From IMG/VR virus record IMGVR_UViG_3300044655_001017: a stretch of DNA of 64,000 bases. One strand, given 5' to 3'. The position numbers and the translations under genes were made by a program. Shown here in pieces: positions 13,037-46,983 of the stretch. Source of the stretch: a virus. Its lineage: Duplodnaviria > Caudoviricetes. Every line of letters starts with the position of its first letter. The stretch's first letter is position 1. The notes under the pieces were generated by a model, which was not told where the DNA came from, searched no databases, and saw nothing but the letters and a program-made list of their open reading frames with translations.

Positions 13037-13513
13037 ATGACCCGCAAATTGGAAGAGCTCCTAAACTTACCAGAAAGTAAAACAATTATAAAAGACGATA
13101 CACCTGCCCCACCACCTGCTACTGTTCCTCTATTTAGAAATATGGATGAATTTGACAAAATATCTGCGGCATTACCTCAAGTAAAAGGCCTAGGCGATAT
13201 TAGTGATTCTGAGTTTGATGCGCTAGCACAGCGTGCAACTGATGCATATGACGACTTAATGGATTTAGGAATGAATGTTGAAGCACGGTATAGCGGCCGC
13301 GTATTTGAAGTAGCAGCAAGTATGCTTAAAAATGCAATTGATGCAAAATCTGCTAAAATAGATAAAAAACTTAAAATGATTGATCTTCAACTTAAAAAAC
13401 AAAAGTTAGACAGTGATACACATCCTGAAGATACTGGCGTTAACATTCAAGGTGACGGCTATATTGTTACAGATAGGAATAGTCTTATCGAAAAATTAAA
13501 GAATATGAAATAA
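13037..13513 (+). CDS. Probable terminase small subunit
   Basis: Helical 158 aa protein near terL ending in RNSLIEKLK; inference only. Confidence 0.4.
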   Translation: MTRKLEELLNLPESKTIIKDDTPAPPPATVPLFRNMDEFDKISAALPQVKGLGDISDSEFDALAQRATDAYDDLMDLGMNVEARYSGRVFEVAASMLKNAIDAKSAKIDKKLKMIDLQLKKQKLDSDTHPEDTGVNIQGDGYIVTDRNSLIEKLKNMK

Positions 13514-13534: not shown

Positions 13535-14158
13535 ATGAAATCATTTACACAACATTTACTAGAATCAAAACAAGTTTATGAATTTAAAATTAAAATTGCA
13601 GGAGAACCTGCAGATGAACAAATTAATAAACTTAAATGTGCATTAGAAAAATTCACAGTTGAATCTTTTTCAGAAGGCACCCGCACACCTATTCAAGAGT
13701 CTCACGTTGATTTTCCAGATCACGAAAACATTAACGTATCAACTTATAATGTTACATTAACTTATCCTGCAACTAGTTTTCAAATAAGATACCTAGCTGC
13801 AGAAGCAATGAATGTATCGCAAAGTTGTGTAAGGGTGCGAAATCTTAGAGAAGACGCCGAAACTGATATCAACCATGCGCATGATATAAAAACAGGTGAA
13901 TCATTATTAGGTAAAGATTATAACAAAGAAAATAATCAAAATTTAGTAGGTGAAACCCATAAGCTAGCATTATTAAAAGAATTAAGCAAGGTTAAACATC
14001 AAGGTGAGCAATACAAAGGTGTTAACGATAAATTGTTAGCAAAAAAAGCACCTGTTGAAAAAACAACAGCTGCAAAAGTTGATAAAACACTTGGAATAAT
14101 TAGCCCAATTGGATCTAGACAAGTTACGTTGCCAACTTCTAAAACAGGAAACTACTAA
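13535..14158 (+). CDS. Hypothetical late protein with capsid-targeting-like N-terminus
   Basis: Late promoter at 13510; starts MKSFTQHLLE. Confidence 0.5.
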   Translation: MKSFTQHLLESKQVYEFKIKIAGEPADEQINKLKCALEKFTVESFSEGTRTPIQESHVDFPDHENINVSTYNVTLTYPATSFQIRYLAAEAMNVSQSCVRVRNLREDAETDINHAHDIKTGESLLGKDYNKENNQNLVGETHKLALLKELSKVKHQGEQYKGVNDKLLAKKAPVEKTTAAKVDKTLGIISPIGSRQVTLPTSKTGNY

Positions 14159-15012
14159 TGGATTTTAAAGAATTAATGCAAAAAATGCAACAAATTGATG
14201 AAGGGTTAACTATAGACCCTGCAATGGAAGAATGTGATGGAATGCCTGCAGCTATTATTCAAGGTGGACATCCACCTGAAGAATCATTAAACATGAACCT
14301 TACTATTAATAGTAAAGGTGCAGATGGCATTCGTGAATTAATAGATGTATTAAAAGGTATTGGCAGCAACAATGATCCAACTGATGACCAACATGACGAT
14401 AGTGAAATTGTCATTGGCGATAATTATGAGAATTCAGTTGACGATGATGCCGGTCCGCATACATACGGAACTGATGCAGTTATCTTTAAAGGTAACGACA
14501 TGCACAACAAAGGTAGAAAATCACTTAAGGTAAATGGTGGAGAAAATCCACAATTTCACGAATCAATAATTTCTAATCTTTCTGCGTTATACGAAGAAAT
14601 TAAAGGTCGTACTGCATTATCTGAAATGTCTCCTGAAGAAAAACAAGCTGCTCAAGATGCGTTCTTTGCTAAAGGCGGCACTGTAACACATGGAAAAAGT
14701 AAAAGAACTAAAAAAGATCGAATGATAGGTCGCCTTCCTGGAGAACACGAAAGTGGGGTTCTTCATTCTGTTGATGCAAAAGTTCCACCTAGACGTGCAT
14801 CTAGACACGACCATGTTAATGTTGCTAGTAAAAAAGGAGAGATTACACCGGATTGGGAAGACAGATTAAATAGATTAGCAGCAGTTGGTGATGAAGATCG
14901 AGCACGCAAGGCAGCTGAACGTGATGCAAAAGATCGTGAAGATAAAGACAATGAAATGAAATCATTTAAAAAGTTACAACGCCTTAACAGATCATTAGTT
15001 AAAGACTTATAA
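14158..15012 (+). CDS. Hypothetical late protein with SutA-like motif
   Basis: 284 aa; contains QAAQDAFFAKGGTVTHG. Confidence 0.5.
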   Translation: MDFKELMQKMQQIDEGLTIDPAMEECDGMPAAIIQGGHPPEESLNMNLTINSKGADGIRELIDVLKGIGSNNDPTDDQHDDSEIVIGDNYENSVDDDAGPHTYGTDAVIFKGNDMHNKGRKSLKVNGGENPQFHESIISNLSALYEEIKGRTALSEMSPEEKQAAQDAFFAKGGTVTHGKSKRTKKDRMIGRLPGEHESGVLHSVDAKVPPRRASRHDHVNVASKKGEITPDWEDRLNRLAAVGDEDRARKAAERDAKDREDKDNEMKSFKKLQRLNRSLVKDL

Positions 15013-15091: not shown

Positions 15092-16018
15092 ATGGGTAAA
15101 TCGCTAGACGGTGTCCTTACAAAAAAAGCACACAAGACTGAAAAATTTGATGAGCAACAAATTAATGACATGCTGTTGTGTTCTGATACAGCTAACGGAT
15201 TTTTACATTTTTCAAGAAAATTCTTTCATATCCAACACTCGGTAAAAGGTAAACTATTATTTCAGCCATTTGATTATCAAGTTAATCTGTTAAATTGCTA
15301 TCATGATCATCGTTTTAATATCAATATGTTACCTCGTCAAAGTGGTAAAACAACCTGTGCATCTGCGTACTTGTTATGGTTTGCAATGTTTCATCCAGAT
15401 CAAACTATTCTAATTGCAGCGCACAAATATACTGGTGCTCAAGAGATTATGCAACGTATACGATACGGATACGAACTATGTCCGGACTTCTTACGTGCAG
15501 GGGTAGTAAGTTATAATAAAGGGTCTATGGAGTTTGATAACGGTTCTCGTATTGTAAGTCAAACTACTACTGGTACTACAGGACGAGGTATGTCTATTTC
15601 GTTATTGTATTGCGATGAGTTTGCGTTCTTACAACCTAACATTGCTGAAGAATTTTGGACTTCTATATCACCCACACTAGCAACTGGTGGACGTTGTATT
15701 ATTACATCTACACCAAATAGTGACGAAGATCAATTTGCTACTATATGGAAAGAAAGTCAACAGTTTTTTGACGAGTTTGGCAATGAGAAAGCAGACAAAG
15801 TTGGCATTAACGGTTTTTCTGGATTTAGATCAGATTGGTGGGATCATCCAGATCGTGACGATGCATGGAAACAAGAAGAGCTTGGTCGTATAGGTGAGGA
15901 AAAGTTTAGACGTGAATACGGTTGTATTGTGCATGATTCAGTTGTAACTGTTAAATGGCCATCTGGAAAAATTGAAAAACTAACAATGGGCGATATTATG
16001 CGATTATTAAGTTCATAG
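15092..16018 (+). CDS. terL: Terminase large subunit N-terminal (ATPase) fragment fused to 31-aa N-intein
   Basis: PRQSGKT Walker A, LLYCDEFAF Walker B, ITSTPN; ends REYG|CIVHDSVVTVK...LLSS (intein block A from 15923). Confidence 0.93.
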   Translation: MGKSLDGVLTKKAHKTEKFDEQQINDMLLCSDTANGFLHFSRKFFHIQHSVKGKLLFQPFDYQVNLLNCYHDHRFNINMLPRQSGKTTCASAYLLWFAMFHPDQTILIAAHKYTGAQEIMQRIRYGYELCPDFLRAGVVSYNKGSMEFDNGSRIVSQTTTGTTGRGMSISLLYCDEFAFLQPNIAEEFWTSISPTLATGGRCIITSTPNSDEDQFATIWKESQQFFDEFGNEKADKVGINGFSGFRSDWWDHPDRDDAWKQEELGRIGEEKFRREYGCIVHDSVVTVKWPSGKIEKLTMGDIMRLLSS

Positions 16019-16029
16019 TATATGACGAA

Positions 16030-16824
16030 ATGATAAATACTAGCATGTATTATGTATATATTTATAAAACCCCAATTAACATCACAGTAAGTTATATGAG
16101 TATTTTAGCAAATCAACCTTTTTATATTGGGAAGGGCCACGGTAGGCGATATAAAGATCATTTATCAGAAACTGCAGAAACTACGTGTAATCATTTAAAA
16201 GTTGCGGTAATTTCTAGATTAGTCGCGCAAAATCTAACTCCAGTTATAGAAATGTATCAAACTGAGTTAACAGATGCTGCAGCAAAGGCTCTTGAAATTG
16301 ATCTGATTAACCAGTACGGCCGATTAATTGATCATGCCGGCCCGTTAACAAATAAAACACTAGGCGGAGATGGGTGTACTGGATTTAAACATACTGAAGA
16401 AACCAAACAATTAATGAGTATTCAGAGAAAAGGAACCATTCCATATAATAAAGGTATCGCTCGTCCAGGAATTGGTGGACGTACATTAGGTACTAAATGG
16501 TCTGAATCTGAAAGAGAAACTCAACTGTTAGTTAGAAGCCAACCAGGTTATTATGAGTTTAACAAATGTCCTATAAGAGCAAAAAAAATAAGTGACTCCA
16601 AAAAAGGAAAACCTGGATCAGCAAAAGACAAACAATGGTTTAATAATGGAGTTATTGAGACCTATAAAGATATATGCCCTGACGGATTTGTTAAGGGAAG
16701 ACTTCCTAGATTACAAATATCAAAGAGAGGCATGTGTTGGTATAATAATGGAGTAATTAACAAACAATTTAAAGAAGGAACAGAACTTGATGGATTTACA
16801 CGCGGAAGAATTAATAAAAAATAA
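16030..16824 (+). mobile_element. Free-standing GIY-YIG homing endonuclease (probable start ATG 16045)
   Basis: YYVYIY...FYIGKG..RRYKDH, LTNKTLGGDG, NUMOD3-like HTEETKQLMS; own ATAAATA promoter at 16033. Confidence 0.88.
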
Positions 16825-17899
16825 GTTAGGATTAACGGTGCTAACTGACACCGGCTGGAGCAAGTTTGACGGAATCTTAGTTAAAGGTGTTAAAAAGATA
16901 CTTCATGTAACTACACAACGTCATTCACTTAAAAGCACTCCTGATCATAAATATTTTCTTAATGGGTTTAAACCGATAGAAGGTAGATTATTATTGCCTA
17001 AACAAAAAATTTTAGTTAATGGCAAACTTGATAATGTCGTGTCTGTTAAGTGGCTGTTAGATGAAGAACCAGTATACGATCTGTTTAATGTTGAACAGAA
17101 TCACAGGTATTATGCAAATAACGTTCTAATCAAAAATTGCGAATTTTTAGTATACGACGAAACTCTTATTAACAGTTTAAAATTAGTAGAGTTATACGGT
17201 AAAGAACCACTAATGAAAATGGGGCAAGTGCGATGGTATAAAAAACCAACTGCAGGTAATTTATATTTAATTGCGTTAGATCCTAGTTTAGGAACAGGTG
17301 GGGACTATTCGGCAATATCAGTATTTGAATTACCATCAATGGTGCAAGTTGCAGAATGGCATCATAACATTACTCCTATACAAGGACAGGTAAAGTTATT
17401 TAGAGATATATTATTATATATACAAGATGAAATTGGATCAGATCAGTATAATTCAATATATTGGTCAGTAGAAAATAATACAGTAGGTGAGAGCGCATTA
17501 GTAGTAATTGACAATTTAGGAGAAGAAACATTTCCGGGATTATTTGTAAGTGAACCGGGCAGAAAGGGGCATGTTCGTAAGTTTCGCAAAGGATTTAACA
17601 CAACTTTTAATAATAAAATAGCTGCATGTTCAAAATTAAAATATTTTGTTGAAGAAGATAAAATGGTTATTAATAGTAAACCATTAATAACTGAATTAAA
17701 ATCTTTTATTGCACATGGCATTAGTTTTAAAGGTAAACCGGGCCAGCATGATGATTTAGTAGCAGCATTATTACTAATAGTAAGAATGATTGATATACTA
17801 GCAGAATGGGATCCGTTAGTGTTTGAAAAAATGCGGATTGAAGATCGAATTGAGGACTGGGAAGCACCTCTACCAATATTTGTTTCCTCTAATATGTGA
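16790..17899 (+). CDS. terL: 116-aa C-intein fused to terminase large subunit C-terminal (nuclease) fragment
   Basis: TPDH (block B), VYDL (F), YYANNVLIKN|CEF (G, ends 17137); then ALDPSLGTGGDYS, VENN, HDDLV; AAGGA RBS upstream. Confidence 0.9.
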   Translation: MDLHAEELIKNKLGLTVLTDTGWSKFDGILVKGVKKILHVTTQRHSLKSTPDHKYFLNGFKPIEGRLLLPKQKILVNGKLDNVVSVKWLLDEEPVYDLFNVEQNHRYYANNVLIKNCEFLVYDETLINSLKLVELYGKEPLMKMGQVRWYKKPTAGNLYLIALDPSLGTGGDYSAISVFELPSMVQVAEWHHNITPIQGQVKLFRDILLYIQDEIGSDQYNSIYWSVENNTVGESALVVIDNLGEETFPGLFVSEPGRKGHVRKFRKGFNTTFNNKIAACSKLKYFVEEDKMVINSKPLITELKSFIAHGISFKGKPGQHDDLVAALLLIVRMIDILAEWDPLVFEKMRIEDRIEDWEAPLPIFVSSNM

Positions 17900-44501: not shown

Positions 44502-44801
44502 TTATAGTCCGTACATTTCAGCTACGCTGTTTGCCACACGTCCGTCGTTACCCCATTGTACTTTAATGCAACCCGGATGTTCATTGCCCAGTGCTGCCAA
44601 CTTAGCAAGTGCCAATTCCCAGTTGTTTAGTTTGTCTACTGGTTTCGGAGCGTCAGCACTTGTAAAGTAGTTAGCTGGTGGTACCTTACGTTCCGGAACA
44701 TTGCTTTTACTTGTTTTCACTTTGCCGCCTGCTTCCAAAAACGCTTGTACTGCATTGTTTGTTGCTGTGTTTTTTGCTTGTTTGTTTGTATTAGTAAACA
44801 T
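44502..44801 (-). CDS. Early protein with SutA-like RNAP-binding motif
   Basis: NAVQAFLEAGGKVKTS. Confidence 0.55.
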   Translation of the reverse strand: MFTNTNKQAKNTATNNAVQAFLEAGGKVKTSKSNVPERKVPPANYFTSADAPKPVDKLNNWELALAKLAALGNEHPGCIKVQWGNDGRVANSVAEMYGL

Positions 44802-44976
44802 AATTTGCACGCTGTAGTAGTGTTAACAGTTAAACGTTATTGCTTAACTTGCATATAGTATAGCAAAGCAAAACTGGTATGTAAAGCGTTTTTTTTAAGT
44901 GTTGTTTCCATTGTGCCCACGCGTGTACACATAAACAGCGGGGCCTTTTCGGCACTTCCCTGTGCCGTTGTATCCG

Positions 44977-45318
44977 TTATAGTCCCGATCCGCATAAGCA
45001 GTTATACACAAACTCAGCATCCTGTAATGCCACATTGTTTATGTAATCCACTAAGTCCTTGTGCTCCTCTACTTCCTCTACAAACGCTTGTACCGCAGCA
45101 TCATCGTTCCACAAGTCATCATGTGCTTCGTAATGTCTGTTGTATATTGTTACCATTTGCGCAATTATATGCACCGGATGTTCAGTAGTGCCCCACTCCT
45201 CCGCATAGTTCTCGTCCGCCAACATAAACACTGTACTTGTTACGCTGGGAGTTAGCGGGTACTTGCTTGTGTTTGCGTTTGCTGTGTTAATTTTTGTTGC
45301 TGTAGTAGTATTTTGCAT
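44977..45318 (-). CDS. Early acidic protein, tandem duplicate A
   Basis: YNRHYEAHDDLWNDDAA shared with 45487..45834. Confidence 0.7.
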   Translation of the reverse strand: MQNTTTATKINTANANTSKYPLTPSVTSTVFMLADENYAEEWGTTEHPVHIIAQMVTIYNRHYEAHDDLWNDDAAVQAFVEEVEEHKDLVDYINNVALQDAEFVYNCLCGSGL

Positions 45319-45486
45319 AGTTAGCACGCTGTAGTTATAAGTTAGCTTAATTGCTAACTTGTACATATTATAGCACGTTTAAACATTTTGTAAAGCGTTT
45401 TTTTAAGTTTTGTTTTCGCTGTTACCATACGCGTGTACACATAGCAGCGGGGCCTTTCCGAGCACGTCCATGTGCTCTGTGTTATC

Positions 45487-45834
45487 TTACAAGCCCGAGC
45501 AACATAAGCAATCATACACAAACACTGTGTTCTGTAATGCCACATTGTTTATGTAATCCACTAACTTCGCATTGTCCTCAACTTCCTCTATACACGCTTG
45601 CATCGCAGCATCATCGTTCCACAAGTCATCATGTGCTTCGTAATGTCTGTTGTATATCTCTGCTATCTTTAATACTATGTGTGTCGGATGTGTCGTTGTG
45701 CTCCACTCCTCCGCAAAGCTCGCATCCGCCAACAGTGCCAGCACACTTGTTTTGCTCGGATAGTACCCGGGCAATTTGCTTGTGTTTACGTTTTGTGTGT
45801 TAATTTTTGTTGCTGTAGTAGTATTAGTTTGCAT
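45487..45834 (-). CDS. Early acidic protein, tandem duplicate B
   Basis: Paralogue of 44977..45318 including promoter and 3' elements. Confidence 0.7.
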   Translation of the reverse strand: MQTNTTTATKINTQNVNTSKLPGYYPSKTSVLALLADASFAEEWSTTTHPTHIVLKIAEIYNRHYEAHDDLWNDDAAMQACIEEVEDNAKLVDYINNVALQNTVFVYDCLCCSGL

Positions 45835-46013
45835 AATAAGCACGCTGTAGTAGTGTTAACAGTTAAGCGTTATTGCTTAACTTGTACATAGTATAACACG
45901 TTTAAACATTTTGTAAAGCGGTATTTTAGAGTATTGTTTCCGACATAACCGGGGGGGGGGTGGTCGGTCGGTCTGTCAGATTGCTTGGCACTTCCCTGTG
46001 CTCGATATATCAG

Positions 46014-46385
46014 TTATGCCATTATGCTCGCTACTTCAGTGTATCGTTGTTTCAATCTTTCGATCATATGGAGTAAGTCGACATTAAAGACTAAGTCATA
46101 TACATCGCTTTCCGTTGTACTCACTATACCAATTGCACTCGTGTAATGGAGTTGTTCGACTATAGTCGTTACAGTCGTTACATCTATTTTCAATTGTTTC
46201 GATACTTCGGCTAGTAACACTTTCGAAACTGTCTTGCGATCTCTGTCCGCTAGTCTATGAAACCCTTTTGCCAACATCCTTGCAACATCGGTATTTTGGC
46301 GTATCGTTGCACCAATGCTATCGTTATGCTCGTGTAACTCGTTTAAAAACTTAATATGGTTTCTCAATACTGTTTGGATAATCAT
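46014..46385 (-). CDS. Hypothetical early protein
   Basis: 123 aa, GGAGCG RBS. Confidence 0.65.
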   Translation of the reverse strand: MIIQTVLRNHIKFLNELHEHNDSIGATIRQNTDVARMLAKGFHRLADRDRKTVSKVLLAEVSKQLKIDVTTVTTIVEQLHYTSAIGIVSTTESDVYDLVFNVDLLHMIERLKQRYTEVASIMA

Positions 46386-46450
46386 TATGCGCTCCAGTTA
46401 ATCAGTTAAGTACGCGCATACTCGATATATGCGCGTGTAAACAGCGGGGT

Positions 46451-46717
46451 CTATTGGCGTGCTTTGATTGCCGATTGCACCTGCTTGTTCAACAGCCCAA
46501 TTGCCGCTAGCTCCTCTTTAGCTTGTTCCCATGTGTATCGTTGTTTCTCTACTACAACTACGCGGGGAGTATGGACTTGTGATACTGTAGTGCGTCCTCT
46601 GCGTCCTGTTTTAGTTGTTTTAATTGCTCCTCCGGTTGCTAAGAACATTGCCACGCGAGCCGCTAACTCCGCTGCTTGTTGTTGTTTAACTTCGTTGTTC
46701 ATAATACCTGTTGCCAT
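46451..46717 (-). CDS. Early protein with SutA-like RNAP-binding motif
   Basis: LAARVAMFLATGGAIKTT; GGAGCG RBS. Confidence 0.55.
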   Translation of the reverse strand: MATGIMNNEVKQQQAAELAARVAMFLATGGAIKTTKTGRRGRTTVSQVHTPRVVVVEKQRYTWEQAKEELAAIGLLNKQVQSAIKARQ

Positions 46718-46878
46718 TATACACGCTCCGCTTTATCGTTAATGTCAGTTTCTTCAGTTTGCTCACAATCCCAACATGGTTCAAGCTCATCTGTTTCCAT
46801 GTTGTATAGTACAGTCAAGTCCCCACACGTAGTGCAATACGCGCGTAGTGGGTAAGTGTTTTTGTATTGTACTTGCAT
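46717..46878 (-). CDS. Small Zn-ribbon-like protein (53 aa)
   Basis: CTTC...CWDC; promoter 46912-46940. Confidence 0.55.
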   Translation of the reverse strand: MQVQYKNTYPLRAYCTTCGDLTVLYNMETDELEPCWDCEQTEETDINDKAERV

Positions 46879-46983
46879 AATTTTTACACGCTGTTTTGTT
46901 AATGTGTGCATATTATAGCATTGTAACACGCGCATTGCAAGTAGTTTGTTAACCGCAATGCGCGTGTACATAAGCAGCGGGGC

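Follow-up and report, generated by a model that had tools for sequence, protein, structure and literature searches.

Three copies of a two-part module in the phage window

The stretch of viral DNA analyzed here (IMG/VR record IMGVR_UViG_3300044655_001017; Duplodnaviria, Caudoviricetes; 64,000 nucleotides, referred to as the window) encodes three proteins that share a small module resembling the RNA polymerase (RNAP)-binding segment of the Pseudomonas protein SutA. Two of them are short basic proteins of 88 amino acids (aa; family A) and 99 aa (family B), and the third is a 284-aa protein (family C) encoded between the terminase genes (Table 1). A preliminary description of the window had quoted one peptide string from each protein as a SutA-like motif, and each of these strings is located in its named open reading frame (ORF). 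The same description had called the two short proteins early, and both of their genes are indeed preceded by a strong extended -10, sigma-70-type promoter; all of the strong early promoters here are of the extended -10 type. The family B protein starts at the ATG, giving 99 aa, in nearly all orthologues, and a GTG at 44810 would yield 102 aa.

Table 1. Positions of the module copies, their motifs and the associated early features in the window
Feature	Position	Strand	Properties	Evidence
Family A early gene	46451..46717	(-)	88 aa, isoelectric point (pI) 10.7; N-segment resembling the SutA RNAP-binding domain (RBD), basic linker KTTKTGRRGRT, C-terminal WE-helix hairpin	
Family A residues 5-40	46598..46705	(-)	aligned to SutA 54-89 (wedge-loop position, helix, GG, strand)	hhalign, PF20661, NF058628, contact residues
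Family A second motif	46496..46531	(-)	WEQAKEELAAIG, opening predicted helix 63-73	alignments, AlphaFold2 (AF2), motif count
Family B early gene	44502..44801	(-)	99 aa from ATG, pI 9.4; bipartite module and family-specific conserved C-terminus IKVxW-NDGRvAnSvxEmYGL	
Family B residues 1-33	44703..44801	(-)	SutA-RBD-like segment MFTNTNKQAKNTATNNAVQAFLEAGGKVKTSKS	PF20661 E 0.028; RBD hidden Markov model (HMM) E 2e-4
Family B second motif	44586..44621	(-)	WELALAKLAALG	alignments, motif count
Family C gene	14158..15012	(+)	284 aa; acidic N-domain residues 1-156 (pI 4.4) and appended basic module residues 157-284	
Family C first motif	14662..14685	(+)	FFAKGGTV, residues 169-176	motif count, hhalign
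Family C second motif	14854..14889	(+)	WEDRLNRLAAVG, residues 233-244, start of long predicted helix 233-283	motif count, AF2
Promoter upstream of family B	44857..44885	(-)	extended -10 sigma-70-type, TTTACA-17-TATACT with TG	
Promoter of the zinc-ribbon and family A gene pair	46912..46940	(-)	extended -10 sigma-70-type, TTGCAA-17-TATAAT with TG	
Zinc-ribbon-like gene	46717..46878	(-)	53 aa, acidic, pI 4.1; CxxC-x16-CxxC (four cysteines)	

The motif is exclusive to these proteins: among all 889 six-frame ORFs of at least 30 aa in the window, a regular-expression count finds F[LIVMF]xxGGx[VI] in 3/889, and the narrower form F[LF]xxGGx[VI] is restricted to the same three. A second motif, WE-x5-L-x3-G (WExxxxxLxxxG), lies 35-60 residues downstream of the first and again occurs in these three ORFs only. 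Shuffling of residues leads one to expect 0.24 ORFs with the first motif, 0.10 with the second, and 0 with both. In the three-way alignment of the copies F, GG, K, WE, LAA and G are invariant, and an HMM built from the two early families recovers the third copy at E 7e-4, with no other additional match in the window. Judged from these alignments, the repeated feature is a bipartite module of ~70 residues, rather than a single short motif. Alignments of families A and B match one another over 68 columns spanning both motifs (hhalign 96.3%, E 1.7e-9), and the C-terminal part of family C matches the early families at 93.7%, relationships that identify the three copies as paralogues of one bipartite module.

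Orthologues of both early proteins are numerous in metagenomes (dozens for each, at 60-100% identity), and some lie on contigs of 274-372 kb. The ratio of nonsynonymous to synonymous substitution rates (dN/dS) for family A against orthologues in related phage contigs is 0.11-0.13, indicating purifying selection, which together with the dozens of metagenomic orthologues argues that the early genes are real. F25, L26, G29, G30 and W63 are invariant in family A orthologues, and the GG pair is retained in 59/59 family A and 30/31 family B sequences. Only nine proteins were hit when 1.84 billion representatives were searched with a profile; besides known orthologues, they include five distant proteins of 79-95 aa (P0092-P0096) with both motifs intact and the 882-aa P0091, which was discarded as a repeat-protein false positive. 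Megablast and tblastn searches of 50,697 deposited phage genomes gave no match for the region, the early proteins, a PFL_1563-type protein (see below) or P0096, and no additional module copies were found on a 176-kb contig whose 88-aa gene is 100% identical to that of the window. The module family is small and, as far as these sources show, restricted to phage-like metagenomic DNA.

Relationship to the SutA RNAP-binding domain

How close is the N-terminal segment of the early proteins to the SutA RBD? PF20661 (SutA-RBD) is the top Pfam match for both, at 14.2 bits (E 0.028) for family B and 13.8 bits (residues 16-42) for family A, and a Pfam scan of the 284-aa protein gives no PF20661 match. 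The weak match is repeated in 17/21 and 15/22 orthologues of families A and B, respectively (best E 0.0067), which are closely related and hence not independent trials, and PF20661 matches in related phage records score 12.6-15.4 bits. The best curated-model E-value for family A comes from NF058628, the model of the PFL_1563 small proteins (20.8 bits, E 2.2e-4), which scores family B at 12.9 bits. The curated gathering cut-offs are 29.3 bits for PF20661, 145 for NF041490 (SutA equivalog), and, over a 51-position model, 60 for NF058628, and both NF058628 scores are below it.

A set of genuine SutA-RBD proteins was collected from SutA of Pseudomonas and relatives, using a back-translated pattern, and from a whole-genome search for proteins passing the PF20661 cut-off; beyond SutA it contains 59-64-aa basic PFL_1563-type proteins and one 183-aa fusion. 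The RBD alignment used with hhalign consists of 12 real segments from SutA, PFL_1563-type proteins and locus L135. The phage alignment matches it at 92.7% (E 4.2e-7) over 32 columns, with family A residues 9-40 on RBD columns 5-36. Reversed alignments give 0.1-0.2%, and 200 column shuffles give at most 11.8%, their best score being 18.6 vs 35.5 for the real pair. An HMM of the RBD, when run over the 889 window ORFs, ranks the two early proteins first (family B E 2e-4; family A 1.5e-3), the next ORF being at E 5.8. In the opposite direction, 126 SutA-RBD ORFs lead the list when the phage-family HMM is run over 13,992 bacterial ORFs (best E 6.7e-4), and the first unrelated ORF is at E 2.8. The PHROG families 9129, 14822 and 5249 are matched by genuine SutA/PFL_1563 proteins and by the window proteins at the same N-terminal profile positions. 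In the ESM Atlas the nearest cluster to the 88-aa protein is mostly viral and has PF20661 on 39% of its members (score 0.85), a lead only, and a family B query of the same resource gave nothing useful; a single-sequence search of the PDB did not recover SutA. In our reading of these comparisons, the segment is distantly related to the SutA-RBD family, but is a non-member by the curated test.

Contact residues and predicted structure

The SutA RBD comprises residues 57-90: its helix (57-76) occupies a hydrophobic groove of the RNAP beta protrusion, for which RpoB residues S59 and E73 are named, residues 77-90 cross the protrusion towards sigma region 3.1, and residues 81-84 probably form an extra strand of the beta-protrusion sheet, one that was modelled in the complex only (PMC9300723). 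The contacts confirmed by mutagenesis are K60, R64, L67, M71, F74, L75, G78, G79, V81 and I84 (PMC9300723). As in SutA (PF20661; NF041490; PDB 7XL3, 7XL4, 7F0R), the segment of the phage proteins is predicted to be an amphipathic helix of ~20 residues that ends in F-L-x-x-G-G-x-[VI], and the helical register K60, L67, M71, F74, L75, G78, G79, V81 is kept in it. When positions are compared by anchoring on the GG pair, 7 or 8 of the 10 SutA contact positions are retained in the phage families. K60 is a nearly invariant K; L67 is L in family A and mostly T in family B (I or L in 4/31); M71 is V or I, F74 is F, and G78 and G79 are both G in the two families; L75 is L in family A and L or I in family B; and V81 is I in family A and V in family B.

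For the free 88-aa protein, AF2 predicts a helix at residues 9-27 followed by G29 and G30, disorder from 28 to 62, and helices at 63-73 and 78-87, the WE motif being placed at the start of this helix hairpin and no strand being predicted after GG (predicted local distance difference test, pLDDT, 72; predicted template modelling score, pTM, 0.31). SutA is likewise reported to be an isolated helix followed by disorder (10.1101/423384). The hhalign alignment sets SutA K60 against residue 11 of the 88-aa protein, so that residues 5-8 (I-M-N-N) of the latter fall at the position of the SutA wedge loop, residues 54-57. Only 6-10 residues precede the helix in the early phage proteins, and nothing replaces the SutA acidic tail.

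Outside the shared segment the proteins differ. SutA is an acidic protein of pI 4.1 whose N-tail of 55 residues is rich in D/E and which also has a conserved DPPKKPDSKYGSRPI tail, whereas the early phage proteins, at pI 9.4-10.7, are basic and possess a basic linker and a WE-helix part that are both absent from SutA. None of the bacterial SutA-RBD proteins examined has the WE-helix part. SutA is also a chromosomal protein of the Pseudomonadales-Oceanospirillales clade, whereas the module copies described here are phage genes.

The third copy in the structural block

The 284-aa gene follows the small terminase gene (13037-13513) and a gene matching a 'virion structural protein' PHROG (13535-14158), and precedes the split large terminase. 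The large terminase lies in two ORFs, 15092-16018 and 16787-17899 (+), interrupted by a homing/HNH endonuclease gene (16030-16824), and the endonuclease and second terminase reading frames overlap at 16787-16824. Orthologues of the 284-aa protein exist in a short form of 156-172 aa, consisting of the acidic N-domain only and found, among others, on the 274-kb and 372-kb contigs that carry the early genes, and in a long form of 252-289 aa to which the module is appended. Since there are orthologues with and without the module, the third copy can be recognized as a lineage-specific C-terminal domain addition to an acidic protein. Two of the long orthologues have lost GG and kept the WE motif. 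Aligned with the SutA RBD, the family C module gives a weak match (hhalign 49%).

The acidic N-domain (14158-14625, (+)), in which LNMNLTINSKGADGIRELIDVLKGIG is strictly conserved, occurs by itself in related jumbo phages, as a protein of 156-172 aa, and it has no match in Pfam, NCBIfam or PHROG. AF2 models the 284-aa protein at low confidence (pLDDT 58, pTM 0.19), with a largely disordered N-domain and a helix at 233-283 that begins at the WE motif. An acidic domain in front of the anchor echoes the SutA layout, yet this one is a separate conserved domain and not a mere tail. Copies of the T4-type late promoter TATAAATA show no enrichment in the window, and the 284-aa gene has none upstream; the label 'late' for this gene is one of gene position alone.

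Neighbours of the early genes

The 88-aa gene is second in its transcription unit, its ATG overlapping the stop codon of the 53-aa zinc-ribbon-like gene (TAATG), and an acidic 53-aa protein is thereby translationally coupled to a basic 88-aa protein. This gene pair and the surrounding gene order recur in three related contigs (L001, L003, L004), one of which is without the 99-aa gene. The sole family match of the 53-aa protein is Zn_ribbon_8, at a sub-threshold E of 0.005; an identification as a DksA/TraR protein was dropped, as only this weak match was obtained. Between the two SutA-like genes are two paralogous early genes, 44977-45321(-) and 45487-45834(-), encoding proteins of 114-115 aa with ~69% identity. 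Each has its own extended -10 promoter, and both proteins have a CLC-x-SGL motif at the end. More copies of this gene type are present in related contigs, and it has no family match. A run of ~11 C (G on the + strand) at about 45951-45961, in the intergenic region downstream of gene 46014-46385, could be slippage-prone or a weak point of the assembly.

Related proteins in bacteria and phages

Members of the PFL_1563 family (NF058628; loci L130, L131, L136, L138, L139) resemble the early phage proteins in being small (59-64 aa), basic (pI 9.9-10.5) and devoid of an acidic tail, and their motif AFLKAGGxIxKIxxGxxGQTT is close to MFLATGGAIKTTKTGRRGRTT of family A. They differ from the early phage proteins in lacking the WE motif and in having a basic leader of ~20 residues that precedes the helix. 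PFL_1563-type proteins in the searched genomes score above the PF20661 cut-off. This link adds no mechanism, as the sources give no function for PFL_1563 proteins. Some genomes (loci L130-L140; G004-G006, G015, G128, G235, G305) encode both an acidic SutA of ~110 aa and a small basic PFL_1563-type protein.

On the phage side, PHROGs 9129, 14822 and 5249, all phage families with no assigned function, match the window proteins at N-terminal profile positions ~7-40. These are weak matches, with E from 1e-2 to 1e-5, limited to the N-terminal segment, the remainder of these families being different; they suggest that a wider set of phage proteins may possess a SutA-type anchor. A 183-aa bacterial protein with a SutA-RBD-like N-terminus, encoded at L135:1075-1623(-) in genome G005, scores 23.4 bits, which is sub-threshold, and its residues 12-172 align with profile positions 11-180 of 184 of phrog_9129, almost the full length. 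The L135 gene is probably a prophage gene, and the alignment suggests that phrog_9129 could be a phage family with this anchor. Pfam and PHROG scans gave no match of the window proteins to any named phage family.

Discussion

We propose that the helix-GG module docks on the beta protrusion of the host RNAP and could change promoter use early in infection, a reading to which we give a probability of roughly 50%; the odds that the phage proteins bind RNAP at all are about even. The amphipathic helix of ~20 residues ending in F-L-x-x-G-G-x-[IV] would sit in the hydrophobic groove of the protrusion (beta1 domain), and the residues after GG, like those of SutA, would extend the protrusion sheet by one strand. 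Since SutA residues 77-90 run towards sigma region 3.1, the basic linker and the helical part that starts at WE-x5-LAA-x-G would be carried in the direction of sigma region 3 and of the promoter's upstream edge. The sigma region near there reads extended -10 promoters. The linker/WE-helix part could alter how the host enzyme uses promoters shortly after infection, by activation, inhibition or a changed promoter preference. A wedging of the lobe in the manner of SutA is unlikely, because the wedge-loop position is where the phage proteins start and they are without an acidic N-tail, which SutA requires for activation (PMC9300723).

A number of observations weigh against this proposal. The relation to SutA is carried by ~30 residues, and the early proteins reach neither the PF20661 gathering cut-off (~14 vs 29.3 bits) nor that of the SutA equivalog NF041490 (12.8 bits vs 145 required). 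SutA is absent, at E <= 0.001, from the hits of the profile search of 1.84 billion proteins; a PDB profile search finds it at E 0.69, outranked by an ArsR regulator at E 0.032. Two of the SutA contacts are not kept, R64 being replaced by A or N and I84 by T, R or S. The 8-residue motif alone is unspecific, as FLEAGGNV or FFEAGGDV occurs in unrelated Pseudomonas ORFs, and the second motif is as well conserved as the first and has no SutA counterpart, so that another partner is possible. A 2018 preprint reported that the cognate P. aeruginosa transcription system was required (10.1101/423384), which hints at a lineage-specific interface. The PF20661 cut-off was passed in only 5/300 sampled Gammaproteobacteria.

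The preliminary description is partly supported. The SutA-like motif is upheld at the profile level (hhalign 92.7%, clean reciprocal HMM searches) and not by the curated scores, a search with the SutA-RBD model, which had been put forward as a check, having given sub-threshold matches only (14 vs 29.3 bits). Most of the mapped contact residues are retained. Taken whole, the proteins are not SutA mimics: they are basic, lack the acidic N-tail and have another C-terminus. The third copy is confirmed by alignment as a paralogue of the module, but its likeness to SutA is weak (49%) and GG is lost in two orthologues.

In the main rival explanation, the module is a docking peptide for something other than RNAP, be it a protein of the phage or a further one of the host; helix-GG-strand would then be a generic beta-augmentation element, and its likeness to SutA would be one of architecture or convergence and not of target. 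This would accord with the conservation of WE-x5-LAA-x-G in all three paralogues and in P0092-P0096 and its absence from SutA, with the fusion of one copy to a protein that is encoded between terminase genes and has no obvious link to transcription, with the retention of the WE motif in the two family C orthologues without GG, with the occurrence of the 8-mer in unrelated bacterial proteins, and with the sub-threshold value of every SutA-model score. However, the register of K60, L67, M71, F74 and L75 is retained beyond the 8-mer, the hhalign match of 92.7% has clean controls, and no other Pfam, NCBIfam or PDB family appears at comparable rank for both paralogues; we consider a different partner somewhat unlikely. 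Less likely is a similarity due to chance, in which the composition of an alanine-rich helix followed by GG, in small and fast-evolving phage proteins, would have no functional meaning. The segment is short, its scores are under the curated thresholds, and the 35-position Pfam model matches 7/14 control genomes at E <= 1 per genome. Yet PF20661 is the best Pfam match in two diverged paralogue families (not fully independent tests, given their common ancestry), composition-preserving column-shuffled and reversed controls never approach the real score, and both reciprocal searches are clean, making a chance effect improbable. That the proteins are remnants of an ArsR/SmtB-like winged helix-turn-helix (HTH), in which the last part of a recognition helix would be followed by a beta-hairpin wing and then a C-terminal helix, and that they bind DNA directly is very improbable and was rejected: the best PDB profile match is the ArsR-family regulator 3f6o (profile positions 20-77, covering both motifs), the proteins are basic (pI 9.4-10.7), and in our reading of the sequence the TGRRGR turn resembles a wing tip, but E 0.032 for that lone match is not significant, no HTH or ArsR Pfam family is found at E <= 1 in any of 43 family members, a single helix precedes the motif where a three-helix core would be needed, and AF2 gives neither a hairpin wing nor a compact fold (pTM 0.31).

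Returning to the proposal that the module docks on RNAP, its two conserved parts allow a more specific and speculative extension, which we regard as unlikely in its entirety. The proteins could form a phage-specific family of two-part RNAP adaptors, in which a SutA-type anchor is combined with a WE-helix part that contacts sigma region 3, extended -10 DNA or a phage partner. One anchor would then be used at different stages, in two basic early versions, one of them made together with an acidic zinc-ribbon partner, and in a late-region version behind an acidic domain that repeats the SutA layout. On this reading the beta protrusion would be a previously unrecognized target for the takeover of host transcription by phages.

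Phage-encoded modulators of host RNAP include T7 Gp2 and T4 AsiA. Proteins of this type are small, are made early and bind the host RNAP to redirect transcription, as is proposed here for the early phage proteins. To our knowledge, no such phage modulator uses the beta-protrusion groove or a helix-GG anchor of the SutA type. SutA itself, the only characterized protein with this anchor, was described as having no homology to RNAP-binding proteins characterized before it, and its range was described as limited to the Pseudomonadales-Oceanospirillales clade (PMC9300723; 10.1101/423384). In a full-text literature search SutA appears solely as a bacterial factor, phage homologues being unmentioned. 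What is particular to the family described here is its divergence, its second conserved part, the presence of three paralogues in a single genome, and the modular gain of one copy by a late-region protein.

If the phage proteins do use the SutA anchor, the beta-protrusion groove would be a site exploited by viruses. The anchor could then be viewed as a portable peptide that carries varied effector parts, acidic in SutA and basic and helical in the phage proteins, and many unnamed small phage genes, several PHROGs included, would gain a testable function. The phage family is also a natural experiment, in which the SutA anchor is found without the acidic tail that activation by SutA needs.

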